The notes beneath the pieces were generated by a model. That model was not told the origin of the DNA. It saw only the letters and a list, made by a program, of their open reading frames with translations, and did not search any database. Positions 4,499-32,000 of a DNA stretch of 32,000 nt are shown here, in pieces. Numbering within the stretch: the stretch's first letter is position 1; each line of letters starts with the position of its first letter. Source of the stretch: Candidatus Omnitrophota bacterium (GTDB taxonomy: Bacteria; Omnitrophota; Gorgyraeia; Duberdicusellales; 4484-171); assembly GCA_021735045.1 (NCBI GenBank), contig JAIPHU010000011.1, forward strand, positions 1 through 32,000. The letters run 5' to 3'. The position numbers were made by a program, and so were the translations under genes.

Positions 4499-4510
4499 CG
4501 GATATTTGCT

Positions 4511-4588
4511 TTACGTTCGATGTGCGACGTTCAATGTTATTAATAAAAAAAATCTAACTTAGAACATAGAACATCGAACGAAACATTG
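4511..4588 (+). repeat. Imperfect palindrome with heptamer-repeat arms between rpoD and gatC
   Basis: Left arm: ttacgtt cgatgtg cgacgtt caatgtt (4511-4538). Right arm: agaacat agaacat cgaacga aacattg (4561-4588). Perfect 10-bp core cgttcgatgt (4514-4523) pairs with acatcgaacg (4571-4580). The loop is A-rich. Confidence 0.85.
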
Positions 4589-8947: not shown

Positions 8948-9071
8948 TCAACGAATGTAGATAATCATCAACGAATATACTAATCTGTACGAATATACCA
9001 ATAGCATTCAAATATTCGTATATTTGTAATTGATTCGTACATTCGATGATTATCTTTCTACATTCGCTGAT
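8947..9071 (+). repeat. About 125-nt imperfect palindrome, acgaat family copy 1, containing the 31-bp core at 8967-8997
   Basis: atcaacgaatgtag (8947-8960) pairs with ctacattcgctgat (9058-9071). tacgaatat (8989-8997) pairs with atattcgta (9012-9020). Intermediate arms pair with bulges. The element starts at the ctpA stop codon. Confidence 0.85.
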
Positions 9072-9098
9072 GATAACCAGTTAATTAATGTAATTTAT

Positions 9099-10522: not shown

Positions 10523-10549
10523 AAAAAGCATCTTTGATGAGTAAAGAAA

Positions 10550-10634
10550 ATCAACGAATTTACTAATCTCTACGAATATACAAATTGTTTTATATTTATT
10601 CGTAAATTCGTAACAAATTCGTACATTCGTTGAT
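10550..10634 (+). repeat. Imperfect palindrome, acgaat family copy 2, with the 31-bp core at 10550-10580
   Basis: atcaacgaat (10550-10559) pairs perfectly with attcgttgat (10625-10634). The core differs from copy 1 at 2 of 31 positions. Confidence 0.9.
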
Positions 10635-10661
10635 GACAACCAATTAACAAGGAGGTTTAAT

Positions 10662-11144: not shown

Positions 11145-11247
11145 TAATAGCTAAAATGTAAATATAAAATCAATTCCCGACTCCAGTCGGAACTGTTTCA
11201 AACTATAACTAACTTCAAAAGTAAGAATAAACAAAAGGATTAAAAGT

Positions 11248-12897: not shown

Positions 12898-12996
12898 TCA
12901 GTGAATGTACAAAGATAATCAGCGAATATATAAATAAGAATAAATAAACATTCGTATATTCGTAAAGATTAGTAAATTCGTTGATAATGATTGATT
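12896..12996 (+). repeat. Imperfect palindrome, acgaat family copy 3, with the 31-bp core in reverse orientation at 12955-12985
   Basis: The reverse complement of 12955-12985 is atcaacgaatttactaatctttacgaatata, 1 mismatch to copy 2. cgaatata (12923-12930) pairs with tatattcg (12955-12962). Confidence 0.85.
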
Positions 12997-13142: not shown

Positions 13143-13625
13143 ATGGATCAAATTTTAGAGATTTTAGAGGATAATGCTAGATTATCTATAGAAGATTTAA
13201 AAAAATTAACTGGAAAGACTAAGAAACAAATCCAGTCAGCTATTAAAAAATATGAAAAAAAAGGGATTATTGTTAAATATAAAACTCTAATTAATAAGGA
13301 AAAGGTAAAAGATTATCAAAAAGTCGTGGCTTTAATTGAAGTAGAGGTAAATCCTCAAAAAGATGTGGGTTTTGATCTGATCGCTCAAAGAATTTATAGG
13401 TTCTCAGAAGTAAAAAATTGTTTTCTTTTATCTGGGACTTATGATCTTTTAATTGAAGTAGTAGGCCCCGACATTAATACTGTAGCTAGTTTTGTCTCAG
13501 AGAAACTTTCTCCTTTAAGTTCAGTAAAAAGAACTGCTACCCATTTTATGTTGAAAAAATATAAGGAAGATGGAGTGGTTTTAGTGAAAAAAGATAAAAA
13601 TAGAAGGTTACCGATAAGCTACTAA
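13143..13625 (+). CDS. Lrp/AsnC-family transcriptional regulator
   Basis: N-terminal winged HTH (ILEILEDNARLSIEDLKKLTGKTKKQIQSAIKKYEKKGII) plus a C-terminal RAM/AsnC_trans_reg-like domain. SD aggagg at 13131-13136. Confidence 0.8.
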   Translation: MDQILEILEDNARLSIEDLKKLTGKTKKQIQSAIKKYEKKGIIVKYKTLINKEKVKDYQKVVALIEVEVNPQKDVGFDLIAQRIYRFSEVKNCFLLSGTYDLLIEVVGPDINTVASFVSEKLSPLSSVKRTATHFMLKKYKEDGVVLVKKDKNRRLPISY

Positions 13626-13626
13626 T

Positions 13627-13706
13627 TAGCTCTTAGCTCATAGCTGATGGCTGATGGATTATAAAAAGAATAGCAATGAGCCATGAGCAATGAGCCATGA
13701 GCTGGT
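13627..13706 (+). repeat. Imperfect palindrome with heptamer-repeat arms between the Lrp/AsnC gene and the aminotransferase gene
   Basis: Left arm: tagctct tagctca tagctga tggctga tgg (13627-13657). Right arm: agcaatg agccatg agcaatg agccatg agctggt (13672-13706). The arms are complementary words around an A-rich loop. Confidence 0.9.
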
Positions 13707-13728
13707 TCGATAATCACGGATTAGGAAA

Positions 13729-20193: not shown

Positions 20194-20221
20194 GGGGTCA
20201 GGTCTCCACTCTTGACAAAAA

Positions 20222-20255
20222 CCCGCAGACGTCCTACTTTCGCCAAATATAGGAC
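20222..20255 (+). repeat. Short version (34 nt) of the gcagacgtcct structured repeat, upstream of the nitroreductase gene
   Basis: cccgcagacgtcctactttcg (20222-20242) is identical to 20815-20835. The following ccaaatataggac matches 20860-20872 at 12 of 13 positions. gtccta pairs with taggac as a 6-bp stem, followed by atttgttttt. Confidence 0.85.
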
Positions 20256-20302
20256 ATTTGTTTTTGCTTATTTAGATACATCCTACAATGAGGAGGTTAG
20301 TA

Positions 20303-20803: not shown

Positions 20804-20814
20804 AAAACCAAATT

Positions 20815-20878
20815 CCCGCAGACGTCCTACTTTCGGTAAAAGTAGACGTCCTATATTTGCCAGATATAGGACGTCTGC
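20815..20878 (+). repeat. Long version (64 nt) of the gcagacgtcct structured repeat with mutually exclusive hairpins, downstream of the nitroreductase gene
   Basis: agacgtcctatat (20844-20856) pairs with atataggacgtct (20864-20876) as a perfect 13-bp stem with a 7-nt loop. Alternatively, gcagacgtcct (20818-20828) pairs with aggacgtctgc (20868-20878). Confidence 0.9.
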
Positions 20879-20978: not shown

Positions 20979-22496
20979 ATGCAAATAGCCAAATTATTAG
21001 CCCAAAAAAGCAAAAAATACCCTAAAAAAGCAGCTTTTATCTGTAAAGATCTGCCTGTATCATTTGCTCAGTTGAAAGATAAAAGTTTTAGTATTGCTAA
21101 CTATCTTTTAGAGTTGGGGCCAATAAAAAGTAAAAAAGTTGCAGTCTATCTGCCTAATTTGCCCGATACGGTTTTTAGTATCTTTGGAGTTTTGTCTGCG
21201 GGAGGGGTATTGGTTCCCCTTGACTATATGTTGACAGAAATTGAAATCATAAATTTCATCAATCATTCTCAAGCTCAGGTTTTGATTATTCAGCCTAAAA
21301 AAGAAGTTAGCCTAGATTGGGTTAAACAACAGTGCCCGGGTTTAAAAAAAATAGTTATTTCTGGGTCAGAGTCTAAAGAATTTACTTCTATTTCAGATAT
21401 CTTTACCAAGAGTTTTCTAGATTTTCCTCAAAGCTCAGTTAAAGACCAGGATGATGCTGCGATATTTTATACTTCAGGTTCAACCGGTCACCCCAAAGGA
21501 GTGGCCTTAACCTATCAACACCTGATAAACCCTATTGAGGTTATTGATAACTATTTAACTGTTAGTTGCAAAGATGTATTTTTGTGCGGGGGGATACCTT
21601 TTTCTCATATTGGCGGTTTAGACTTTATTCTATTTATGCTTTACTTTGGCTTTACCCTTATTTTGATGGAAAGATTCCAGCCGTTAGATTTCTTAAGAAA
21701 TATTCAAAAACATAAAGTAACTTTATTTTGCGTGGTGCCGGCTATGTTTATGGCTATACTTTTTCTAAAAGGGGCAAAAAAGTTCGACTTGTCTTTTCTG
21801 AAATATGCTGTGGTTTTTGGAGCGCCTTCTTCACCGGCGGTATTAAAGAGGTTTCATAAACTTTGCCCTAATGCTCAGTTACGCAATGGTTGGGGCATGA
21901 CCGAGACATCTGCACCTAACAGTTATTCGCCGGCAGATCAAAATAAACTTTCTAGCATCGGCCGTTTTGATTTTAATCTGGAAGCAAAAATTGTTGATAA
22001 CCAAGGTAGTCAGGTACCTCAAGGCAACAAAGGTGAGTTGTGGGTTAGAGGCAAAGGCGTTATGAAAGGTTACTATCGGGAACCAAAGTTAACCAAGCAG
22101 GTATTGACTGAAGACAGATGGCTAAAAACCGGAGATATAGCTAAAAAAGATAAAGAAGGTTTTTTTTATATAGTTGGGAGAAAAAAAGAGATGATTAAAG
22201 TAGCTGGAGAAATTGTATTTTCTCCGGAGGTAGAAAACGTTATTCAAAAATTTCCGGGGGTAGTTGAGGTAGCCGTTGTTGGCAAAAAGGATAAACTAAG
22301 AGGAGAGGTTCCCAAAGCCTTTTTAGTAGTGGATAAATCAGATCAGTTTGATAACCAGAAGTTTAGGGATTTTTTAAAACAGCACCTAGCTCACTTTAAG
22401 ATCCCTCAGAGTTTTGAATTTTGCGAAAAACTGCCTAAAAATAGAACTGGAAAGATAGATAAATTGAAGTTAACAAAAACTATAAAGATATCTTAA
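20979..22496 (+). CDS. AMP-dependent acyl-CoA/acyl-ACP ligase (ANL superfamily)
   Basis: A3 motif FYTSGSTGHPKGV, GWGMTET, YYREPKLT...GDIA and the C-terminal LPKNRTGKIDK. No SD is recognisable before ATG 20979. Confidence 0.9.
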   Translation: MQIAKLLAQKSKKYPKKAAFICKDLPVSFAQLKDKSFSIANYLLELGPIKSKKVAVYLPNLPDTVFSIFGVLSAGGVLVPLDYMLTEIEIINFINHSQAQVLIIQPKKEVSLDWVKQQCPGLKKIVISGSESKEFTSISDIFTKSFLDFPQSSVKDQDDAAIFYTSGSTGHPKGVALTYQHLINPIEVIDNYLTVSCKDVFLCGGIPFSHIGGLDFILFMLYFGFTLILMERFQPLDFLRNIQKHKVTLFCVVPAMFMAILFLKGAKKFDLSFLKYAVVFGAPSSPAVLKRFHKLCPNAQLRNGWGMTETSAPNSYSPADQNKLSSIGRFDFNLEAKIVDNQGSQVPQGNKGELWVRGKGVMKGYYREPKLTKQVLTEDRWLKTGDIAKKDKEGFFYIVGRKKEMIKVAGEIVFSPEVENVIQKFPGVVEVAVVGKKDKLRGEVPKAFLVVDKSDQFDNQKFRDFLKQHLAHFKIPQSFEFCEKLPKNRTGKIDKLKLTKTIKIS

Positions 22497-22517
22497 AGCG
22501 AGGAGGATAAATTAATT

Positions 22518-23252
22518 ATGATGCAACGTGATGTTCATATGAGCCCAGAGGATCTGCTAGATTCTCTCCAATTTAGAAAAGGAGATTTTGGTAAAATTGC
22601 TTTGGTCAGCGGACAAAAACAAAGAGCTCAGCTATGCTTAAAACATTTGGAAAATCCGGTTAAAAATTTTACTTTTTTAGGTTATACTTTTTGGACTGGA
22701 AATTATAAAAATAAAAAAGTTACAGTCGGTAACGGAGGGTTTTATGCTCCAGATTCTGCTTTTATTACAGAGTTGCTTGCTGTGGGTGGGGTTGATACCC
22801 TGATTCGATTAGGTTCTTGCGGAGCTTTAAGAGAAGATATCGGGGTAGGAGATTATATTTTGGTAGATCAAGCTATCCGGGGTGATGGTGCTACTAAATA
22901 TTACGTAGATGATGATTTTATCCCAAAAGCAGATAAAACTATTAGCTCAGCTATCAAAGAAATAGCCTCAGAAAGCTGTCCGGTTCATCAGGGTTCAGTT
23001 TGGACTACGGATGCCCTTTTTAAAGAAACAAAAGGCATCGTTAACTCTTATATAGAAAAAGGGGCTATCGGAGTCGATATGGTAACTTCTCCATTTTTGA
23101 CTTTAGCTAATCTTTATCAGAAAAAAACAGCAGCTATACTTTCAGTTTCTGATAATTTAATTACCGGAGAACTGGGGTTTAATAACTATAAATTTTTTGA
23201 AAGTCAGTTAAAGATGATAGAAGTAGCATTTAAAACAGTTGATAGTTTATAA
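22518..23252 (+). CDS. PNP/UDP-family nucleoside phosphorylase-like protein
   Basis: LIRLGSCGALRE resembles the DeoD/Udp RxGSCGA motif. Also GAIGVDMVTS. Size 244 aa. SD gaggagg at 22501-22507. Confidence 0.7.
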   Translation: MMQRDVHMSPEDLLDSLQFRKGDFGKIALVSGQKQRAQLCLKHLENPVKNFTFLGYTFWTGNYKNKKVTVGNGGFYAPDSAFITELLAVGGVDTLIRLGSCGALREDIGVGDYILVDQAIRGDGATKYYVDDDFIPKADKTISSAIKEIASESCPVHQGSVWTTDALFKETKGIVNSYIEKGAIGVDMVTSPFLTLANLYQKKTAAILSVSDNLITGELGFNNYKFFESQLKMIEVAFKTVDSL

Positions 23253-23261
23253 GGAGAGCAG

Positions 23262-23531
23262 ATGGAAATAAAATGGGATAGTTCAGCTAAGGAAAAGTTT
23301 GATAAAGTTATTCAATCTTTACCTCAGTTTCATAGGACAATTGCAGAAAAGTTGGTGCATCAAAAAGCAGAAGATTTAGCTAGTTGCCGTAAGTCACCGT
23401 TGGTAGAAGACCAAGATTTAATTCAGGCTTTCTTTCAGGAAGTTCCACCTGCTTTCTGTGAAATGATGAAAAGATTGTTTGATCATCTTAATATTGACTA
23501 TTCAAAATATATTGAGGAGCAGGATAAATAA
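23262..23531 (+). CDS. Small PCP_red-like (protochlorophyllide reductase C-terminal domain-like) protein
   Basis: The pattern W-(5)-A-(10)-LP-F-(18)-A is reminiscent of PF08369, but this is a weak call by eye. SD aaggag upstream. The stop overlaps the next start (TAATG). Confidence 0.35.
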   Translation: MEIKWDSSAKEKFDKVIQSLPQFHRTIAEKLVHQKAEDLASCRKSPLVEDQDLIQAFFQEVPPAFCEMMKRLFDHLNIDYSKYIEEQDK

Positions 23532-24538
23532 TGAAGATAGCAGTTTTAGGTTGTGGAGCAATCGGCGGGTTGTTTTTAGCTCATCTTTCTAAAGAGTCAA
23601 AAAATGTTTTTGGAGTAGTTAGAGACTATCAGCTGGATTCTTTAGAAAATGAAGGCCTGATAATTAAGCAAGAAAATAAGGAAGAAAACGTGAAAGTTAA
23701 AGTTTGTACTAGGTTAACAGAGCCCCTAGATTTAGCTATTTTCACCACCAAAACTAATAATTTGGAAGAAATAATACAAGAAAATATTGATTATCTAAAA
23801 GATGCGGTGGTGGTATCGGCTCAAAATGGATTGAGAGCAGATAATATTTTAGCTAAGTTTTTTCCAACTGAAAAAATTATAACTACTATTGTAATGTTTG
23901 GAGCAACTTTTTATCCGCCTAACAGAGTTGTTTCTAACTTCTCTGGGAATCTTATTATGGGAAATATTTTTGGGAAAAAAGTAGTTGACCAAGAAAAGAT
24001 AAGACAAATTTTAACTAAGTCATTTAATGTAGAAGTTTTAAACAATATAAAAGGAGCTAAATACCTTAAGCTGTTTATAAATCTTAATAACTGTATTCCG
24101 GCTATATTAGGAAAATCAATGCAGGAATCTTTTAGCAGCTTAGAAGTTGCTAAGTTAGCTATTAAGTTAAACCAAGAAGCTTACCGGCTTATCAGGCAAG
24201 TGGGTATCGATTTAGAAAGTTTACCTAATTACCCTAAGGAGAGAATTGAAAGTTTAACTTCAATGCCGCTTCAAGAAGCTGCTTCTCTTTTTTCAAAAAT
24301 AATGACCGGTTTAAGTAAAGAACCTTTATATGGCTCTATATTACAAAGTATAAAGAGAGATAAACTTTCTGAGATTGACTATATAAATGGTGAAATTGTT
24401 AAAGTAGCAGAAAATAATGGTCAACAGGTACCTTTAAATAAAAAGGTAGTTAGCTTAGTCCACCGTGTTGAGCGAGAAGGGTTTTTATCAGAAAATGAAC
24501 TCTTATCAGAAATTAAAGGAGTAGAAAATGAAAAATAA
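23531..24538 (+). CDS. 2-dehydropantoate 2-reductase (PanE/ApbA)-family oxidoreductase
   Basis: N-terminal Rossmann motif MKIAVLGCGAIGG. C-terminal SILQSIKRDKLSEIDYINGEIV matches the family motif S.LQD...G+.TEID.LNG. Confidence 0.8.
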   Translation: MKIAVLGCGAIGGLFLAHLSKESKNVFGVVRDYQLDSLENEGLIIKQENKEENVKVKVCTRLTEPLDLAIFTTKTNNLEEIIQENIDYLKDAVVVSAQNGLRADNILAKFFPTEKIITTIVMFGATFYPPNRVVSNFSGNLIMGNIFGKKVVDQEKIRQILTKSFNVEVLNNIKGAKYLKLFINLNNCIPAILGKSMQESFSSLEVAKLAIKLNQEAYRLIRQVGIDLESLPNYPKERIESLTSMPLQEAASLFSKIMTGLSKEPLYGSILQSIKRDKLSEIDYINGEIVKVAENNGQQVPLNKKVVSLVHRVEREGFLSENELLSEIKGVENEK

Positions 24539-25172
24539 AAATGAAGATTACTTATCAGCTAATTGTGCTGATATTAAAACTCCCTTTCCAAAACTAAAAG
24601 TAACTTGTACTGGGGTTTTTGGTGAGTGTTACCATGGTTATGAAGTGGGTGATGAACTAATTTTAGGAGATTTTACCCATCCTCCTAAGCATTTTTGCCT
24701 TGGGTTGGTTCATTCACTTTTTCCACCTGCCTACGCTTTAAGTTTTGGGGCTAGGTTTCCTTTTATGGAGAATCAAAAATCGTTAAAAGTTACTTGTCCT
24801 GATGGCGGAAAAGCTGAATTTTTGGTTGAGCTGTTAGATAAAAAAGATAAAGTTCAATTTATTCCCCAAGACCCTAACCATAAAGGGCCTAATCCGAAAA
24901 AAATGGAAGTAGAAGTAGTTAAGGCAAAAGGAAAATGTGCCTATAAATATAAAGTTGGTGACAAATGGGACATAGAAGGGCTTAAATGTATCCCCGGGTT
25001 TTGTGGAGCAGCTTGGCATACACTTTTTCCGGCGGTTTTTGCCTTAAACTTTGGAGCAAAATTTCATTTTATGCAAGACCCTAACTCTATAGATACAGTT
25101 ACTTGCCCTGATGGCGGCAACATTGTATTTAAGGTAAGAAGAAAAGAAAAAGACGCGAAAGAACGCGAATAA
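24528..25172 (+). CDS. Cys-rich protein with two tandem TIGR04076-like domains
   Basis: There is an internal duplication: GECYHGYEVGDE...FCLGLVHSLFPPAYALSFGARFPFMENQKSLKVTCPDGG versus GKCAYKYKVGDK...FCGAAWHTLFPAVFALNFGAKFHFMQDPNSIDTVTCPDGG. The family assignment is from memory of the TIGR04076 pattern. Confidence 0.45.
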   Translation: MKNKNEDYLSANCADIKTPFPKLKVTCTGVFGECYHGYEVGDELILGDFTHPPKHFCLGLVHSLFPPAYALSFGARFPFMENQKSLKVTCPDGGKAEFLVELLDKKDKVQFIPQDPNHKGPNPKKMEVEVVKAKGKCAYKYKVGDKWDIEGLKCIPGFCGAAWHTLFPAVFALNFGAKFHFMQDPNSIDTVTCPDGGNIVFKVRRKEKDAKERE

Positions 25173-25238
25173 AAAAGATGCGAAAGAGCGCGAATACAAT
25201 TAGTGTTTATTAGTTAAAAATTAGCGTTTATTCGCGTT
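25150..25238 (+). repeat. Intercistronic palindromic element, gacgcgaa family copy 1 (TIGR04076-like gene to KSalpha)
   Basis: Left-arm words: aagacgcgaaa gaacgcgaata ... gatgcgaaa gagcgcgaata. Right-arm words: attagtgttt attagttaaaa attagcgttt attcgcgtt. aacgcgaat (25162-25170) pairs with attcgcgtt (25230-25238) as a perfect 9-bp stem. Confidence 0.9.
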
Positions 25239-25254
25239 ATAAAGGAAGGTAGAA

Positions 25255-26502
25255 ATGAAAAGAGTAGTTATAACAGGTGTTGGTGTAATATCAGCTGCAG
25301 GCGAAGAAAAGAATGAATTTTATAATAATCTAATTGAAGGTAAGCCGTGCATAGAAAAGGTAGAAAATTTTGACGTCAGTTTATTTAATTCAAAAGTCGC
25401 TTCTCAAGATCTAGATTTTGATCCTAAAAACTTTGGCATAGAAGATGCTTATCGTATGGATCGTTATGTTCAGTTTGGCCTTGCTTCTGCAAAACAGGCG
25501 GTCAAAGATGCAAAACTAGATTTCTCAGATCTAGATTTAAGAAAATCAGGAGTTATCTTGGCAAACGCTATTTGTGGAACCCGGTTTATGGAAGAAGAGT
25601 TTCTTCTGGTAACCGATTGGGGCAAAAATCCAATTGATCCCAGAAAGGGAAGGCCTTATCTTTATGATGCTGCGATGTTTAATACGCCAAGTGCTGAAAT
25701 TTCTGCTTTTTTTGGCACCCAGGGGATAAATACAACAATTTCTACTGGTTGTACCGCCGGTACTGATTCTTTAGGCTTTGCTTATGAATTAATTAAAGAT
25801 GGCAGGCAGGATTTAGTTATATCCGGAGCCAGTGAGGCCCCGATTACTCCGGTTACCTTCGGTGCCTTTGATGTAGTTAATGTTTTAGCTAAAGAGAATG
25901 ATCAGCCTCATAGATCAAGCCGTCCCTTTGACAATAAACGTAATGGTTTTGTTATTTCTGAAGGAGCCGGAATCTTAATCATGGAAGAACTCGAGCATGC
26001 TAAAAAAAGAGGAGCTCATATCTACGCAGAAGTTAAAGGTTTTGGTACTACTTGTAATGCTTATCATATGACTGATCTACCCCCAGATGGGCGCCCGATG
26101 GCACTTTCTATGGAACAGGCTTTGTCTGAGGCAGGTATTGATAAAAAAGAAGTAGGTTATATTAATGCCCATGGGTCTTCGACTCGCCAAAATGACATTT
26201 TTGAAACTGATGCTTACAAAAAAGTTTTTGATAAACTTGCTTATGATATTCCGATCAGCTCAATTAAATCTATGGTTGGCCATCCTTTGGCAGCTGCAAA
26301 TGCGGTTGAAAGTGTTTTGTGCTGTATGGTTTTTGAAAAAGGTTACCTTCCTCCTACAATTAATCAAGAAGAAAAAGACCCAAAGTGTGATCTAAACTAT
26401 ATTCCTAATAAAAAAATGAAACTAATGCCAGAATACATATTAAAGACAAGTAGTGGATTCTCAGGTATTCATTCAGCTATTGTGTTTAAAAAATGGAAAT
26501 AG
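25255..26502 (+). CDS. Type II PKS ketosynthase alpha (KSalpha)
   Basis: Active-site ISTGCTAGTDSLGFA (the TGCT.G.D pattern typical of KSalpha rather than FabF), catalytic His in AYHMTD and INAHGSSTRQND, and the GFSGIHSAIVF C-terminus. SD aaggaagg upstream. Confidence 0.9.
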   Translation: MKRVVITGVGVISAAGEEKNEFYNNLIEGKPCIEKVENFDVSLFNSKVASQDLDFDPKNFGIEDAYRMDRYVQFGLASAKQAVKDAKLDFSDLDLRKSGVILANAICGTRFMEEEFLLVTDWGKNPIDPRKGRPYLYDAAMFNTPSAEISAFFGTQGINTTISTGCTAGTDSLGFAYELIKDGRQDLVISGASEAPITPVTFGAFDVVNVLAKENDQPHRSSRPFDNKRNGFVISEGAGILIMEELEHAKKRGAHIYAEVKGFGTTCNAYHMTDLPPDGRPMALSMEQALSEAGIDKKEVGYINAHGSSTRQNDIFETDAYKKVFDKLAYDIPISSIKSMVGHPLAAANAVESVLCCMVFEKGYLPPTINQEEKDPKCDLNYIPNKKMKLMPEYILKTSSGFSGIHSAIVFKKWK

Positions 26503-26506
26503 ATAA

Positions 26507-26591
26507 AAGACGCGAAAGAACGCGAATATGATACAAATGAACGCGAACATAATTAGTGTTTTTTCGTTAAAAATTAGCGTTTATTCGCGTT
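26507..26591 (+). repeat. Intercistronic palindromic element, gacgcgaa family copy 2 (KSalpha to CLF)
   Basis: aagacgcgaaagaacgcgaat (26507-26527) is identical to 25150-25170. gttaaaaattagcgtttattcgcgttataaa (26566-26596) is identical to 25213-25243. Confidence 0.9.
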
Positions 26592-26611
26592 ATAAATAAG
26601 GAGTTTTATAA

Positions 26612-27850
26612 ATGAAAGAGAAAGTTGCCATAACAGGTTTAGGGGTTGTTTCTCCTTGTGGCCTAAAGAAAGAAACTTTTTGGGCTAATTTAAAAAAAGA
26701 AGAATCATTTATAGAAGAAATCAAAAGGTTTGATTCAAAAAATTATCCTTCACATATTGCTGGTCAGGTGAGTCAACTTGATTATTATACCCATCTTTCT
26801 AAAAGGTTAACAAAAAAAATTGATATTTTTTCCCATATGGCACTTGTCTCTTCAGAAGAGGCGATAGTAGATTCAAAAATGAACCTAGATGATATCGACA
26901 AAGAAAGAGTTGGAGTATTTATGGGCAATGCCTTAGGCGGATGGTTGTTTGCTGAAACTGAATTAAGGGATATGTATATTGAAGGCAGAGACGGTATCTC
27001 TCCTTATATGGCATCAGCTTGGTTTCCGGCTGCACCTCAAGGCCAGATTACAATTTACTATGGATTTAAAGGATATAGTAAAACCACAGTTTCTGATAAG
27101 GCATCATCTGCTTTGGCTTTATGGTATGGGGCAAAAACAATTAAAGAAAAAAAGAATGACTATGTATTAGCCGGAGGAATGGAGGCACCGATTACCCCCT
27201 ATGCCTTGTTATCTGCTAATTGCCGGGGTGATTTGTCAAAAAATAATAGCCGTCCCCAAGAAGCTTATAAGCCTTATGATTTGTATCGAGACGGGCTGGT
27301 ATTAGCAGAAGGTTCGGGTACAGTTGTCTTAGAAAGTCAAAATCAAGCAAGAAAAAGAAAAGCTCCGATTTATGGTTATATAGAAGGTATCGGTTTTTCT
27401 TCGGATGGGTATCATTATGCAAGGTACCGGCCTACCCCAGAAAATCTAGAGTATGCTATAAAAGAATGCTTAAAAGATGCTGGTTGGCAAAAAGAGGATG
27501 TTGATTATATCTGCTTAGATGCAGAGTCTACTGAAATGGGAGATTACCTTGAAACCCAAGCTTTAAAGAATGTATTTGGAGAAAAAATTAAAAACATAGC
27601 TTTAAGTGCGCCTAAAAGCATGTATGGAAATCTATTGGGAGCTCAAACCGCATTAGACTTAATTACTACTTTATTTTCGATGCAAAACTGTATTGTGCTT
27701 CCTACTATAAACTATTCGATGCAAGACCCATACTGTGACCTAGACTATACACCTAATAAGTCAGTGGAAAAAGAGATAGATAAGGCACTGATTATTTCCA
27801 GAGGCAGGGGAGGAATAAATATAGTATTAGCAATAGAAAAAGCGGAGTGA
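26612..27850 (+). CDS. Ketosynthase beta / chain-length factor (CLF), lacking the catalytic Cys
   Basis: This is a full-length KS paralogue. KSalpha TTISTGCTAGTDS aligns with TTVSDKASSALAL (no Cys, no Gln), and INAHGSST aligns with ICLDAEST (His lost). It lies directly downstream of KSalpha. Confidence 0.85.
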   Translation: MKEKVAITGLGVVSPCGLKKETFWANLKKEESFIEEIKRFDSKNYPSHIAGQVSQLDYYTHLSKRLTKKIDIFSHMALVSSEEAIVDSKMNLDDIDKERVGVFMGNALGGWLFAETELRDMYIEGRDGISPYMASAWFPAAPQGQITIYYGFKGYSKTTVSDKASSALALWYGAKTIKEKKNDYVLAGGMEAPITPYALLSANCRGDLSKNNSRPQEAYKPYDLYRDGLVLAEGSGTVVLESQNQARKRKAPIYGYIEGIGFSSDGYHYARYRPTPENLEYAIKECLKDAGWQKEDVDYICLDAESTEMGDYLETQALKNVFGEKIKNIALSAPKSMYGNLLGAQTALDLITTLFSMQNCIVLPTINYSMQDPYCDLDYTPNKSVEKEIDKALIISRGRGGINIVLAIEKAE

Positions 27851-27943
27851 GCAAAGCGAACGGAGTTCTGAGCGATCAAGCGGTGAGCGCAGTCCTGAGC
27901 TTGTCGAAGGACGAAGTCGAACCACGCAGGGAGTCGAAGGAGA
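27851..27943 (+). other. GC-rich, purine-rich direct-word tract between CLF and ACP
   Basis: Hand count over 27851-27940: 53 of 90 nt are G/C and 58 of 90 are purines. tgagc starts at 27848, 27869, 27884 and 27896. gtcgaa starts at 27903, 27916 and 27933. No complementary arm was found. Confidence 0.8.
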
Positions 27944-27969
27944 TAAAAAATAAATTATAAGGAGGCAAA

Positions 27970-28209
27970 ATGGATTTAAAAGAAGAAGTAATAAAAGTAA
28001 TTGCAGAAACCCTAGAAGTAGGCAAAGAAGAAGTTGTTGATGGAAAGAATTTATATGAATCAATTGGTGTTGATTCAACAGAAATGGTAGAAGTTTGTGT
28101 GGCTTTAGGAAAACATTTCGACACAAAAATCCAAGCCAGTGAAGTTAACAAAGATTCAACTCCCGAGGATATAGTAAGAATAGTTAAACAAAAAAAAGAA
28201 AATAATTGA
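27970..28209 (+). CDS. Acyl carrier protein
   Basis: 79 aa and acidic, with the phosphopantetheine attachment motif IGVDSTEMVEV. SD aaggagg at 27959-27965. Confidence 0.85.
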   Translation: MDLKEEVIKVIAETLEVGKEEVVDGKNLYESIGVDSTEMVEVCVALGKHFDTKIQASEVNKDSTPEDIVRIVKQKKENN

Positions 28210-29021
28210 TAACTATGAATTTAATAGATTTAAGTTTACCAATCGACGATCAAGCCTTCGAGGTTCATCCTTTAAGGATAGAACGCACTTCACATAAAGA
28301 AGGTATAGCAAAGATAAATAAGGTAATAATGTCTCGAACTCCTGAAGGCAAAAAAAATTATCAAGCTGGTGAAAGGATAATAAAAAAAGAACAATTGCCA
28401 GGAGGAGAATTTTTGTCACTGGAGATGGTTTATTCGTCAGTCCATAGCGGAACTCATATGGATTATTCTTTTCATTATGGCAGCAGCTCCGAAGGCAGGC
28501 CTTCTAAAACTGCTGATGAAATTCCTTTAGAGTTATGTTACAAAGACGGGGTAAAATTAGACTTAACTCATAAGAAAAAAGAAGAAGTAATTAGCGCCGA
28601 GGATATAAAGAAAGGTTTAGAAAAAATAAATTACACTTTAAAGCCCTTAGACATAGTTTTGCTTTATACCGGATCTGACAAACTATTTGGCAAACCGGAA
28701 TATTTTTCTGATTATCCAGGCCTGGATATATCAGCAATAGATTATCTACTTGATTGCGGTATAAAAGTATTTGGAGTTGATACTATGGGAATTGATAGGC
28801 CCTATAAATTTATGATCAAAGATTTTTTAGAAAAAGGGGATCCTAAATTTTTGTGGCCGGCTCATTTTCATGGAAGAACCAGAGAATTTATTCATATTGA
28901 AAGGCTTGCTAATTTAGAAAATTTACCTGATTATGGATTTAAACTTATTTGTTTTCCAGTTAGAATCAGAAAAACTGGTGCTGCTTGGTCAAGGGCCGTT
29001 GGAGTAATTGGTGACAAGTAA
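28206..29021 (+). CDS. Putative cyclase (PF04199 / kynurenine formamidase-like fold)
   Basis: VHSGTHMDYSFHY matches the family motif HxGTHxDxPxH. The start is either TTG 28206 (overlapping the ACP stop) or ATG 28215. Confidence 0.85.
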   Translation: MITMNLIDLSLPIDDQAFEVHPLRIERTSHKEGIAKINKVIMSRTPEGKKNYQAGERIIKKEQLPGGEFLSLEMVYSSVHSGTHMDYSFHYGSSSEGRPSKTADEIPLELCYKDGVKLDLTHKKKEEVISAEDIKKGLEKINYTLKPLDIVLLYTGSDKLFGKPEYFSDYPGLDISAIDYLLDCGIKVFGVDTMGIDRPYKFMIKDFLEKGDPKFLWPAHFHGRTREFIHIERLANLENLPDYGFKLICFPVRIRKTGAAWSRAVGVIGDK

Positions 29022-29047
29022 TTAATTAAACAAAAAGGAGGTTTACT

Positions 29048-29479
29048 ATGGCACATACTGTAAATTCAATTGTAATTGATGCACCTTACGATAAGGTTTT
29101 TGAAATCAGTAATGATATTTCTCGTTGGAAGGATTTGTTTGACGAATATACCGAATCTGAAGTTTTAGAAAAAGAAGCAAATAAGATTATTTTTCAGCTT
29201 ACTCATCAAAATGGCAATAGTTGGAAGTCATACCGGCTTTTGTTTAAAGAAAATAAATTTGCTTATGCAGAAAAGCTAGATCCAAAGTTTCCTTTTGAAT
29301 ATATGAAGATAATCTGGCTTTACCGCCAACTTCCAAACGGGGTTGAGATGACATGGATTCAAGATTTTACTATGGATAAAAATGCTAAGTTTGATGATCC
29401 AAAAGCTGAAGAGATTATAAATCAACACTCGCAGAAGAACTTAAAGAATTTTAAACAACAAATAGAAAATGAAAAATAA
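29048..29479 (+). CDS. SRPBCC-superfamily polyketide aromatase/cyclase-like protein
   Basis: 143 aa, with an N-terminus I.A....VF....D...W..LF typical of Polyketide_cyc2/TcmN-like monodomain ARO/CYC. PKS context. SD aaggagg upstream. Confidence 0.65.
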   Translation: MAHTVNSIVIDAPYDKVFEISNDISRWKDLFDEYTESEVLEKEANKIIFQLTHQNGNSWKSYRLLFKENKFAYAEKLDPKFPFEYMKIIWLYRQLPNGVEMTWIQDFTMDKNAKFDDPKAEEIINQHSQKNLKNFKQQIENEK

Positions 29480-29482
29480 AAA

Positions 29483-30634
29483 ATGTTAAAAACACACAGA
29501 CGCACTTTTTTCTTTTTAGCTAGCTTGGCTTTTATCCTTTCTTTTAGTGTACAAGCTACAGCAGCGCTTCTGCCTACTTTAGCAGAATATTTCAATCAAA
29601 GTCCGGTTGCAACAGGTAAGTTAATTTGGATTTATATGCTTCCCTACGGACTATGTGCTTTAATTTGGAGTCCGTTAAGCAGGCAGTTTTCGAATAAAAG
29701 GATTCTGCTTTCTTGTCTGGCGCTTTTTTCTCTGTCTGCTTTGGCAGTGACTTTTTCTTTTAATCTATTAGCTGCTTTTTTAGGCCGGTTGGGTATGGGT
29801 ATATTTGGCTCGGCACTGGTACCTTTAAGTTTAATTACGATTGGTAAAGAGTGTAATAGTAAAGAGCGTCCTAAACATGTTGGTTTATTTTTTTCAGTTG
29901 GTTTTAGTTCAGGGCTCATAGGAGTTTTTTTAAGTGGGATTTTACCTTGGAGGTTTATCTACGGAATTCCTGCCTGTCTAGGGATAGTAGCTTTATTTTT
30001 TGGCATAAGGTATCTAGATAGCTATGATTATCGGGGTAAGTTTAAAATTAGCTACCTGGCTACGTTTAAAGACAAAAGTGCCTTAAAACTATTTTCTTTT
30101 ATCTTTGTTTTAAGTTTTTTCTACCATAGTATTCATCAATGGTTAGGGGTCTACTTAGCTCAAGAATATTCTTTTAGTCAATTTTTAGTAAGTTTAACTT
30201 TAACTATTTCAGCAATAGCTGCAATTTTTTCTGAAAGTATTGGCGGTTTTTTATCAGCTCGGTTTGGTTCCTCTAATATTGCTTCATTAGGGCTTTTGAG
30301 TATGGTTTTATTTTTATTTTTTACTTTAATTGTCGGATTGCCTCAGGCAATATTTTTTCTTATTATTTTTTGGGGTATGGGTTGGGCTTTTAACCATGTC
30401 GGTTTATCGTCATATTTAACTGGGCTTCCCGATAAATATTTGCGTGATGCATCCAGTCTAAATAGCTCTTTAAGGTTTATCTCTGGAGGCTTAGGGACTT
30501 ATTTTGGCGGAAAGATTATCTCTAAGATAGGGTTTTCGATCCATTTTATAACTGTAGGAGTTTTACTTTTGGTAGTAGCAGTTTTAATTAAAAAAACTTT
30601 AATAGTTAATAACGCGAATGAACGCGAATTATAG
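29483..30634 (+). CDS. MFS transporter
   Basis: About 12 hydrophobic helices over 383 aa, with the typical MFS loop motif SPLSRQFSNKRILL between TM2 and TM3. Confidence 0.8.
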   Translation: MLKTHRRTFFFLASLAFILSFSVQATAALLPTLAEYFNQSPVATGKLIWIYMLPYGLCALIWSPLSRQFSNKRILLSCLALFSLSALAVTFSFNLLAAFLGRLGMGIFGSALVPLSLITIGKECNSKERPKHVGLFFSVGFSSGLIGVFLSGILPWRFIYGIPACLGIVALFFGIRYLDSYDYRGKFKISYLATFKDKSALKLFSFIFVLSFFYHSIHQWLGVYLAQEYSFSQFLVSLTLTISAIAAIFSESIGGFLSARFGSSNIASLGLLSMVLFLFFTLIVGLPQAIFFLIIFWGMGWAFNHVGLSSYLTGLPDKYLRDASSLNSSLRFISGGLGTYFGGKIISKIGFSIHFITVGVLLLVVAVLIKKTLIVNNANEREL

Positions 30635-30696
30635 ACGCGAATGAACGCTAATATTATTAGCGTTTATTTGTTATAAATTAGTGTTTTTTCGCGTTT
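30611..30696 (+). repeat. Intercistronic palindromic element, gacgcgaa family copy 3 (MFS to SDR)
   Basis: Left arm: aacgcgaatgaacgcgaattatagacgcgaatgaacgctaat. Right arm: attagcgtttatttgttataaattagtgttttttcgcgttt. The MFS stop TAG (30632-30634) lies inside the left arm. Confidence 0.85.
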
Positions 30697-30712
30697 AAAA
30701 GAGGAGGTTAAG

Positions 30713-31495
30713 ATGGGTAATTTAGAAGATAAAGTTGCAATTGTAACTGGTGCTACAGGAGGTATTGGTAAAGATATAGTTAAAGGACTAGTTGATAAAA
30801 AAATAAAACTTATATTGGCTGGGCGCAATCAAGAAAAATTAAAATCCTTAGAAGAAGAATTTTCGAAAATTTCTGAAATTATTACAGTTAGCTGTGATGT
30901 TACCAAAAGAAAGGATTTAGAAAATTTAATTAATAAAGCCAAAGAAAAATTTGGCAAGATTGATTTTTTAATTAATGGGGCTGGAGTATCAAGCCAGCAT
31001 CCTTTTTGGAATCAGCCTATAGAAGATATAGAAAAAATTATCTGGACCAACTATTATAGTTATGTAATGTTATCAAGAATGGTTGTGCCAATTATGAAAG
31101 AAAATAATTTTGGCCATATTGTAAATATTACATCTGGATCTGTGATGGTAGATCCGCCGCCAAGAAATTTTATTGTTTACACTTCTTTAAAGGTGGCATT
31201 ACGCAGCTTTGCTAAGGGTCTTTTTTGGGAGATGCGTGATTTTGGGATAAAGGTTACATCCATTTTTCCTGGGGTAACCCGGACTCCTTTAACCGGTAAG
31301 TTAAAGAATATAGCTGAAAATAGGCTTATAGAACCAAAAGCAGTAGCTGATACAGTAGTGTTTGCCTTGGCTCAGCCATTAAATGTTTGCCCCATTGAAC
31401 TTGCTGTAATAAATCAACAAACACCTTGGACAAAACCGGTTATTCCGTTTAAACAAGATCACCCGAAAGACGCGAAAGAACGCGAATGTAATTAG
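30713..31495 (+). CDS. Short-chain dehydrogenase/reductase (candidate PKS ketoreductase)
   Basis: VTGATGGIGK cofactor motif, NGAG, and the catalytic Ser ...YTSLK (YxxxK). SD gaggagg upstream. Confidence 0.9.
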   Translation: MGNLEDKVAIVTGATGGIGKDIVKGLVDKKIKLILAGRNQEKLKSLEEEFSKISEIITVSCDVTKRKDLENLINKAKEKFGKIDFLINGAGVSSQHPFWNQPIEDIEKIIWTNYYSYVMLSRMVVPIMKENNFGHIVNITSGSVMVDPPPRNFIVYTSLKVALRSFAKGLFWEMRDFGIKVTSIFPGVTRTPLTGKLKNIAENRLIEPKAVADTVVFALAQPLNVCPIELAVINQQTPWTKPVIPFKQDHPKDAKERECN

Positions 31496-31552
31496 TGTTT
31501 TTTCGTTAAAAATTAGCGTTTATTTGTTATAAATTAGCGTTTATTCGCGTTT
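31467..31552 (+). repeat. Intercistronic palindromic element, gacgcgaa family copy 4 (SDR to radical SAM)
   Basis: aagacgcgaaagaacgcgaat (31467-31487) is identical to copies 1 and 2. The extended right arm is attagtgttttttcgttaaaaattagcgtttatttgttataaattagcgtttattcgcgttt. The SDR stop lies inside the element. Confidence 0.9.
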
Positions 31553-31570
31553 AAACAAAGGAGGTAGAAA

Positions 31571-32000
31571 ATGAAAGTATTATTTGTAACCCCTAAAACT
31601 GGAGCTTGGGCAACTCATGGAAAGCATCTAGGCCCTAACCAACTTTATGCCCAGTGGGCAGCATTTATCAGAGAGAAAGGCTTTAAAGATTTAGAAGTAC
31701 TTGATTGCCGGGCCCACCAGATAGAGATGGATGAGATGCTTGAGGTGATAAAAGAAAAAAATCCAGAAGTAGTAGTAATTGGGGATATGCTTCATTCCTA
31801 TGGAGGATTTGGAATTATTCACTATTTTTTAAAAACAGCCGAAGGGATAAAAAAGATTTTACCTAATACTAAAATAATCTTTGGAGGGCTTTGGTTTTCA
31901 TCGATGCCTAAATATTCTTTGGAAAAATATCCTTTTATTGACTATGTAGTTATGGCTGAAGAAGAAGCGTTTTTTGATTTGCTATCTTCTCTAGAAAAAA
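31571..32000 (+). CDS. B12-binding-domain radical SAM protein, N-terminal fragment (CDS continues beyond the window)
   Basis: Not in the ORF track because no stop is reached. My translation: MKVLFVTPKTGAWATHGKHLGPNQLYAQWAAFIREKGFKDLEVLDCRAHQ...NPEVVVIGDM...TKIIFGGLWFSSMPKYSLEKYPFIDYVVMAEEEAFFDLL. This matches the layout of the class B radical SAM cobalamin-binding domain. SD aaaggagg at 31557-31564. The CxxxCxxC motif would lie outside the window. Confidence 0.55.
   Translation, partial: MKVLFVTPKTGAWATHGKHLGPNQLYAQWAAFIREKGFKDLEVLDCRAHQIEMDEMLEVIKEKNPEVVVIGDMLHSYGGFGIIHYFLKTAEGIKKILPNTKIIFGGLWFSSMPKYSLEKYPFIDYVVMAEEEAFFDLLSSLEK

Follow-up and report, generated by a model that had tools for sequence, protein, structure and literature searches.

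The stretch analysed here, hereafter the window, comprises 32,000 nt of contig JAIPHU010000011.1 from a metagenome-assembled genome (MAG) of Candidatus Omnitrophota; its GC content is 33% and every gene lies on the + strand. Its 3′ part carries a polyketide synthase (PKS)-like operon with ketosynthase (KS) and chain length factor (CLF)-like genes, and four related palindromic elements, A1 to A4 (family A), occupy gaps between the genes of this operon, with none elsewhere in the window or in the 39-kb contig. We consider it likely that the four copies belong to a palindromic insertion element, as solo or miniature forms devoid of its open reading frame (ORF), and are not a regulator built into the operon. 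The operon genes encode, in the first part, an AMP-ligase and proteins of the PNP_UDP_1, ApbA and TIGR04076 families; in the middle, KS, a CLF-like second KS without the active-site Cys, an acyl carrier protein (ACP) and two cyclases; and in the last part a major facilitator superfamily (MFS) transporter, a ketoreductase (KR) of the short-chain dehydrogenase/reductase (SDR) type and a B12-binding radical S-adenosylmethionine (SAM) enzyme, with further genes downstream. The operon is kept across Omnitrophota, with KS proteins 70-93% identical. It also holds amidohydrolase, IF-2B-like, aldolase and aldehyde dehydrogenase genes (window 20979-32000 and L001 to 20039; loci used in the comparisons carry L numbers). 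The elements, and the Shine-Dalgarno (SD) sequences and start codons that follow them, are listed below.

25150..25243, + strand: copy A1, between the TIGR04076-family gene and the KS-alpha gene; left-arm words 25150-25170 and 25175-25195, a 3-nt loop at 25196-25198, right arm 25199-25238 (ATTAGTGTTT ATTAGTTAAAA ATTAGCGTTT ATTCGCGTT), then the tail ATAAA, common to A2
25242..25257, + strand: SD AAGGAAGG and ATG of KS-alpha, directly 3′ of A1
26507..26596, + strand: copy A2, between the KS-alpha and CLF-like genes; left arm 26507-26527, an extra word at 26538-26548, right arm 26552-26591, then the tail ATAAA, common to A1
26598..26614, + strand: SD AAGGAG and ATG of the CLF-like gene, directly 3′ of A2
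30609..30696, + strand: copy A3, between the MFS transporter and KR genes; left words 30609-30629 and 30632-30652, right arm 30656-30696
30700..30715, + strand: SD AGAGGAGG and ATG of KR, 3′ of A3
31467..31552, + strand: copy A4, between the KR and B12-binding radical SAM genes; left arm 31467-31487 with two words only, right arm 31491-31552 with five words
31558..31573, + strand: SD AAGGAGG and ATG of the radical SAM gene, 3′ of A4, a stretch kept in L169 and L003

Element architecture and folding

Family A elements are 85-95 nt long, and their arms are runs of a word of about 10 nt that reads (G/A)ACGCGAA(T/A) in the left arm and, as the complement, ATT(C/A)GCGTT in the right arm; the two arms are complementary and constitute terminal inverted repeats. 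Of the heptamer ACGCGAA the window contains 14 copies where 1.0 would be expected; each of them lies within one of the four elements, and the remaining 7 kb of the contig beyond the window have none. The 21-mer AAGACGCGAAAGAACGCGAAT is found exactly at 25150, 26507 and 31467 and as near-copies with 2-3 mismatches at 25175, 30609 and 30632, and positions 25213-25243 of A1 and 26566-26596 of A2 share an exact 31-nt identity. These results bear out a first-pass annotation of the same DNA, which had described a four-copy palindromic family in intercistronic gaps and had named the three 21-nt left arms and the 31-nt identity. It had the third copy start at 30611, where the arm runs from about 30609, and it gave a word period of 10-11 nt, which holds for most of the words; steps of 13, 15 and 21 nt also occur.

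All four copies are co-oriented with transcription and end just upstream of SD sequences, at a distance of 3-6 nt and not the 8-20 nt first proposed, with start codons 16-20 nt downstream; the spacing of 109 nt reported between KS-alpha and CLF was confirmed. The SD region that follows A1 is host sequence, outside the element and kept in relatives, and AAGGAGTTTTATAAATG at the CLF junction is identical in the empty site of L002. The left arms add C-terminal residues (KDAKERE, NANEREL and KDAKERECN) to three ORFs. The ORF at 24528-25172 upstream of A1 ends inside the left arm with a TAA at 25170-25172, the stop codon of the MFS ORF (30632-30634) lies inside the left arm of A3, and the KR ORF gains seven codons from A4, with its stop at 31493-31495.

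Folding of both strands with RNAfold gave asymmetric energies, and the + strand folded better in all four copies, as the first-pass annotation had anticipated for the sense RNA: -24.7 against -18.1 kcal/mol for A1, -25.9 against -21.3 for A2, -37.2 against -22.9 for A3 and -25.9 against -15.0 for A4. Both strands folded better than shuffled sequences (z from -3.1 to -6.7 on the + strand and from -2.1 to -4.0 on the - strand). The sense-strand fold is an imperfect stem of 14-40 bp, in which the outer ~14 bp of the solo copies are always formed; A3 is the best-paired copy, with a stem of about 38 bp (33 Watson-Crick and 5 G.U pairs). The inner stem of A1 contains the three G.U pairs previously pointed out and, in addition, a G.A mismatch between 25192 and 25202. 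In a strand-neutral comparison, each left arm was aligned with the reverse complement of its right arm. Family A showed 38 mismatches that would form G.U wobbles on the sense strand and 7 that would do so on the antisense strand (A.C-type on the sense strand), counts to which the copies contribute as sequences of shared ancestry and not as independent cases. All other hairpin families together showed no sense-strand bias (about 46-60 against 55); general sense-strand selection on all hairpins was discarded, the bias being seen in family A and one other element only.

A cis-regulatory RNA selected by the host, in which hairpins of the repetitive extragenic palindromic (REP) type set segmental mRNA stability or translation and tune the ratios of the PKS subunits, would account for the better + strand folds, for the excess of G.U-type mismatches, for the position of co-oriented copies just before SD sequences and for the clustering of family A in the operon in all relatives examined. 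On the other hand, the remaining hairpin families on the same transcripts lack the strand bias, and the arms of family A are unbalanced (two against five words in A4; extra left words only in L004). The comparison of relatives described below makes this explanation improbable.

Imperfect palindromes that lie right after stop codons and form local family clusters also recall integron attC sites, which behave in this way in chromosomes, or intrinsic terminators. However, the flanking genes form a conserved syntenic operon and not a set of cassettes, there is no integrase among the window ORFs, and the ends of the elements do not conform to RYYYAAC/GTTRRRY. The 9 terminator-like sites all lie outside the elements, no U-tract follows the elements and no promoter-like site coincides with them. 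We regard an attC or terminator identity as extremely unlikely; the terminator/promoter scan and the sequence spoke against the intrinsic terminator, promoter and attC readings, and all three were dropped. A search of Rfam at gathering score gave no match in the window or in 18 cross-phylum loci; a single Rfam match at E<1 was a chance plant miRNA hairpin.

Turnover among relatives and the GxxExxY unit

We compared orthologous loci whose KS proteins are 81-91% identical to that of the window, and a matrix of gaps over nine orthologous loci showed a mosaic in which, at each of the four sites, family A is present in some loci and absent from others. The KS-to-CLF gap, which with family A measures 109 nt in the window and 98 nt in L169, is 19 nt long in L002-L004, among them a relative with a 91% identical KS, 37 nt in L006 and 3 nt in the compact operon of L171, and A2 is an insertion relative to those five loci. 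At the A1 gap, shorter or variant versions were present in L002-L004 and L169 and none in L006 and L171, whose genes overlap. The MFS-to-KR gap measures 32, 38, 78, 79 or 102 nt where family A is present, with varying word numbers, and -8 nt in L169 and L171, which have no element there. In L171 (KS 81% identical) the operon is compact, all its gaps but one of 139 nt falling between -13 and 24 nt, and L004 has extra words in the left arm only. L002 and L003 encode an identical KS protein and yet their elements are unlike at three gaps, with different word families at the KR-to-radical-SAM and radical-SAM-to-amidohydrolase gaps, which indicates that element turnover outpaces amino-acid change. 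Among relatives with KS 89-100% identical, elements were present, absent or swapped for unrelated word families. These gap differences indicate that the elements are recent, fast-turning insertions and not conserved parts of the operon.

Such variation at 89-100% KS identity, together with a compact ortholog without elements and the derivation of A4 described next, weighs against the cis-regulatory RNA explanation and, in particular, contradicts the earlier proposal of a dedicated tuner of PKS stoichiometry. As a separate observation, L003 and L006 both belong to GCA_021736105.1, a MAG in which the entire operon occurs twice, in diverged versions and on separate contigs; this MAG is probably a mixed bin of two populations.

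The KR-to-radical-SAM gap, occupied by A4 in the window, contains in L169 (KS 89% identical) and L172-L177 a 134-aa gene placed between family A arms. Its product matches TIGR04256, the GxxExxY family (E 6e-40), and Pfam PDDEXK_3 (PF13366). In this unit the last word of the left arm supplies the start codon, the arm ending ...GAACGCGA immediately before ATG, and the right arm after the stop reads ATTAGCGTTTATT...GCGTTTAAA. Minimum free energy folds of full units paired the arms across the ORF over 19-30 bp, burying the ATG. When the A4 site was aligned, L003 was found to have the arms plus the last ~55 nt of the ORF and the window the arms only, and A4 is therefore an ORF-less remnant. L003 is a deletion intermediate between the full element and solo arms. 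In relation to the GxxExxY family (TIGR04256; PF13366), then, full-length relatives of the element encode a member, whereas the gene is absent from the window.

The GxxExxY protein retains an intact PD...(E/D)xK motif. Its predicted model (predicted local distance difference test score, pLDDT, 91) showed weak likeness to PD-(D/E)XK nucleases, and a fold search with the model returned weak generic PD-(D/E)XK matches, the best being Cas4 SSO0001 (E 2e-4); no match was obtained in a PDB sequence search or with PADLOC. The function of the family is listed as unknown, and multiple horizontal transfers have been described (PMC3424549). In the literature we found no description of inverted word-repeat flanks for GxxExxY genes.

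Besides family A, the window contains many other intergenic hairpins made of short words of unrelated sequence; hairpins of this sort are therefore general in this genome, with family A as one example. Hairpins at 1115-1206, 4499-4585, 13626-13728 and 11145-11247 lie between housekeeping genes (rpoD-gatC and others) and use the words AAAGGT/AACCTTT, ACGTTCGATGT/ACATCGAACG, TAGCTCA/TGAGCCA and TTCCCGACT/AGTCGGAA, respectively. Three copies of family B (ACGAATATAC / ATATTCGT words) lie within 4 kb, at 8948-9074, 10523-10661 and 12898-12995, the third inverted; the copy at 10540-10640 is 87% identical over 86 nt to an element in the Cyc-to-PKcyc gap of L172, a different site. Family C palindromes (GCAGACGTCCTA...) lie at 20216-20265 and 20809-20878, on either side of a nitroreductase gene, and the contig starts with an exact 56-nt direct repeat (1-56 and 76-131) 5′ of the first gene. 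In the CLF/ACP gap, 27851-27945 is a GC-rich (~58%) word-repeat insert (GAGCG / GTCGAAGG words) in this genome of 33% GC, a composition that suggests a foreign origin; in relatives the two genes overlap (L002) or the gap holds an AT-rich element (L006). An apparent 8-nt duplication at the CLF-to-ACP junction was explained by conserved C-terminal codons and the SD sequence. In the Cyc-to-PKcyc gap of L002, the hairpin at 13555-13619 has left words TTAATTGGTGAGTGG that closely resemble the final codons of the gene upstream, GTAATTAGTGAGTAG, and this arm looks as if it had been made by local duplication and inverted copying.

The word family across phyla

A search of a collection of species-representative genomes with the pattern ACGCGAAWGAACGCGAAT returned at least 120 stretches against roughly 35 by chance, according to our own estimate. 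The matches listed come from genomes with a GC content of 0.32-0.70 in many phyla, including Verrucomicrobiota, Planctomycetota, Acidobacteriota, Chloroflexota and Armatimonadota as well as Gammaproteobacteria, Spirochaetota, Bacteroidota, Elusimicrobiota, Saccharimonadales and others, and in them the 10-nt word GAACGCGAAT builds inverted arms. The typical cross-phylum form is (T)AACCGCGAATG(G/A)ACGCGAATGAACGCGAAT, a loop and ATTCGCGTTCATTCGCGTCCATTCGCGGTT. An exact complementary heptamer was present within 150 nt downstream in 51 of the 118 matches listed and upstream in 2 of the 118. Thirteen of the loci listed contain a GxxExxY gene, nearly all with flanking word arms, and at the cross-phylum GxxExxY loci the ATG lies in the word junction (MNANERE-LILKDEVY...). 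Over three words, the AATGAAC junction of canonical arms brings ATG and TGA into each of the three frames. A second Omnitrophota GxxExxY gene, which lies in a different operon and was identified by protein homology, is likewise flanked by words (ACACGAAT/ATTCGTGT) and has its ATG in the last of them.

The window copies fit the GAACGCGAAT class, with a left arm of at least two (G/A)AC(G/A)CGAAT words and the complement within ~150 nt or across a GxxExxY ORF, of which they represent a variant shifted towards AT, in which the junctions read AAAGAAC and GTTTAT replaces GTTCAT. In agreement with this assignment, a hidden Markov model built from the cross-phylum right arms alone matched just the four elements in the window. 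In addition, L118, from a different Omnitrophota MAG, carries a family-A-like solo element between ORFs of 569 and 620 aa, a site outside the operon, and the family is therefore not tied to the PKS-like operon. A metagenome scan with the AAAG sub-variant recovered only cross-phylum elements and chance matches in coding sequence, with no match from the source lineage. We found no paper on the word sequence or on Omnitrophota repeats of this kind.

The distribution bears on whether the palindromes were made in situ, by slippage or template switching at gene junctions followed by gene conversion and with no mobile element involved. The L002 Cyc-to-PKcyc hairpin that resembles the 3′ end of its upstream gene, the varying word number between near-identical relatives and the local clustering of each family would all fit such an origin. 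Nevertheless, the same words and architecture recur in many phyla and in viral contigs, family A occurs at the non-orthologous L118 site, the family B sequence recurs at a different site in L172, and a homologous ORF-bearing form exists. Taken together, these data leave an in situ origin with very little probability.

Across phyla the enclosed proteins are 30-49% identical and the words nearly invariant, and this difference suggests sequence-specific recognition of the words. Another explanation places function at the level of DNA, with the words, one per helical turn, as putative binding sites for the GxxExxY nuclease or a host factor and the hairpin as a secondary consequence, much like transposon subterminal repeats or iterons. 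The 10-11 nt spacing agrees with it; conservation of the words over such a range of GC content exceeds what base pairing needs; variants that break complementarity (ATTAGCG opposite CGCGAAT) recur in many phyla; and pure tandem arrays without an inverted partner exist, for example at L071, L056 and L115. However, the window has no GxxExxY gene, and the arms are clearly complementary and pair in the folds. We hold binding arrays to be possible, although rather doubtful, as the primary explanation; they could be part of the mobility mechanism and in that case would not be a true alternative.

Several further observations concern the word families themselves. Head-to-tail GAACGCGAAT arrays of at least 8 units with no obvious inverted partner occur at L071 3820-3897, L056 1500-1760, L115 3200-3290, L091 and L043, in MAGs of Akkermansiaceae, Anaerolineae and Chitinophagaceae. 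L065, L009, L027, L099, L106 and L044 use other 10-nt words in the frame GAAC-NNNN-AT (for example ACACAGAT, ACACGAAT and GACAGGAT), and families of this frame adjoin or nest within ACGCGAAT hairpins in distant phyla. Two contigs binned with the archaeon Methanothrix (L033 and L120) carry near-identical elements of bacterial type, one with a frameshifted GxxExxY gene, which could reflect misbinning or inter-domain transfer. Six predicted viral contigs of IMG/VR (L184-L186 and L188-L190) contain true elements with the typical outer CCGCGAATG word; since the viral count is close to our chance estimate for that collection, we make no claim of a viral vector.

Nature of the elements and likeness to known systems

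[quoted passage not shown] A match to a known MITE, which the first-pass annotation had named as a result that would count against its regulatory RNA, was not obtained, yet a MITE-like relationship is shown by the terminal inverted repeats, by a longer gene-bearing relative (L169, L172) and by insertion polymorphism in the gap matrix, with empty and filled junctions. The internal gene of the longer relatives of MITEs encodes a transposase, whereas GxxExxY has a predicted nuclease fold and no known activity.

The IVS of Coxiella burnetii and Leptospira resemble family A as selfish inserts in a transcribed region that spread sporadically by horizontal transfer and consist of a long inverted-repeat stem with an optional small ORF, the internal ORF of the Coxiella IVS being of unknown function. 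In the Coxiella 23S IVS, strains differ in the number of tandem GACAGAT heptamers located just upstream of the ORF, and the RNase III cut falls where the first heptamer begins (PMC4990558). In contrast, family A resides in intercistronic gaps of mRNA and not in helix 25 or 45 of 23S rRNA, no rRNA was found in the window or the scanned loci, its 10-nt words are of other sequence, and the full form encodes GxxExxY, with a nuclease fold, and not a four-helix S23p protein. Excision by RNase III, a feature of IVS, is for family A a prediction by analogy. An IVS in the strict sense was discarded, as family A is not in rRNA.

Correia elements of Neisseria, also called Neisseria miniature insertion sequences (NEMIS), and enterobacterial repetitive intergenic consensus (ERIC) sequences are similarly palindromes of ~100 nt in operon gaps, polymorphic between strains and able to form long RNA hairpins. 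Such hairpins undergo processing, which in NEMIS is the work of RNase III, and they alter the stability of neighbouring mRNA. Family A has no sequence similarity to these repeats. Correia elements have 26-nt terminal inverted repeats, a TA duplication and an integration host factor (IHF) site and are limited to one genus; family A is made of tandem 10-nt words, crosses phyla and has a gene-bearing form. REP sequences and bacterial interspersed mosaic elements (BIME) are short extragenic palindromes too; they lie at gene ends and have been proposed to stabilise mRNA. The first-pass description as REP-like is apt for a repeated, co-oriented extragenic palindrome in gaps of the KS/CLF operon; it fails for the size and make-up (85-95 nt and word-built, against palindromes of 20-40 nt with a GTAG or CGTC head, which family A lacks) and for the partner gene, as no REP-associated tyrosine transposase (RAYT; IS200/IS605-like) domain was found among the window ORFs and the gene associated with family A encodes a PD-(D/E)XK-fold protein. 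Finally, Rickettsia palindromic elements (RPE) can likewise extend or enter coding sequence, but they sit in frame inside genes and are translated through, whereas family A only caps the ends of ORFs, three in this window, and is otherwise intergenic.

In the preferred explanation, the insertion element, a full element with arms around a ~130-aa GxxExxY gene (TIGR04256 / PDDEXK_3, of PD-(D/E)XK nuclease fold) sits in the KR-to-radical-SAM gap of relatives, and A4 is what an internal deletion left of it in the window. We propose further that arm copies would have been seeded into three nearby junctions between a stop codon and an SD sequence to give A1 to A3. We infer this local seeding from the KR-to-radical-SAM unit because family A is limited to the operon in all relatives. 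Word numbers would then drift by slippage, and insertions would survive only where the downstream SD sequence and start codon were spared; the left arm may close the upstream ORF by supplying a stop codon after a few additional codons. By analogy with rRNA IVS and Correia elements, the cistrons on either side would be uncoupled by an RNase III cut, the upstream fragment would retain a stem at its 3′ end, and any effect on KS:CLF stoichiometry would be a by-product.

Several points weigh against this explanation. The direction from full element to solo hairpin is documented, by alignment, for A4 only, and A1 to A3 could have another origin. In every relative examined, family A is limited to this operon within about 21 kb, a pattern that transposition explains no better than local copying or gene conversion does and that is also compatible with a role linked to the operon, and the copy number in the source genome refers to the 39-kb contig only. 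We could establish neither a transposase nor a target-site duplication nor an excision footprint; the flanks are AT-rich and of low complexity. A2 is flanked by ATAA/ATAA, but the site itself is an ATAA repeat, and the other junctions have no clear duplication. The sense-strand G.U bias of family A hints at some constraint at the RNA level, although it may in part be an inherited asymmetry of the arms, because ATTAGCG variants recur across phyla. Lastly, the stem is probably a substrate of RNase III, a proposal whose basis is analogy.

More speculatively, GxxExxY genes and inverted arms of 10-nt words might together constitute an unrecognised cross-phylum class of mobile elements. In this tentative scheme the nuclease would drive copying, by recognising the words or their cruciform or hairpin, solo hairpins would spread locally into operon junctions, and RNase III excision would make the insertions tolerable; rRNA IVS would then have this class as their counterpart in mRNA and possibly as their source. 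A cross-phylum palindromic element tied to an orphan family of nuclease fold has apparently not been described. GxxExxY/PDDEXK_3 is a very large protein family, and its constant association with inverted word repeats gives it a first testable role. The origin and movement of rRNA IVS have been open since 1990, and full, deleted and solo forms at one site offer a tractable evolutionary series. Hairpins of this kind alter intergenic spacing, extend the ends of ORFs and break metagenomic assemblies. In the operon analysed here they uncouple KS and CLF, which are normally translationally coupled, and those who annotate biosynthetic gene clusters of uncultured phyla should not read them as regulators.

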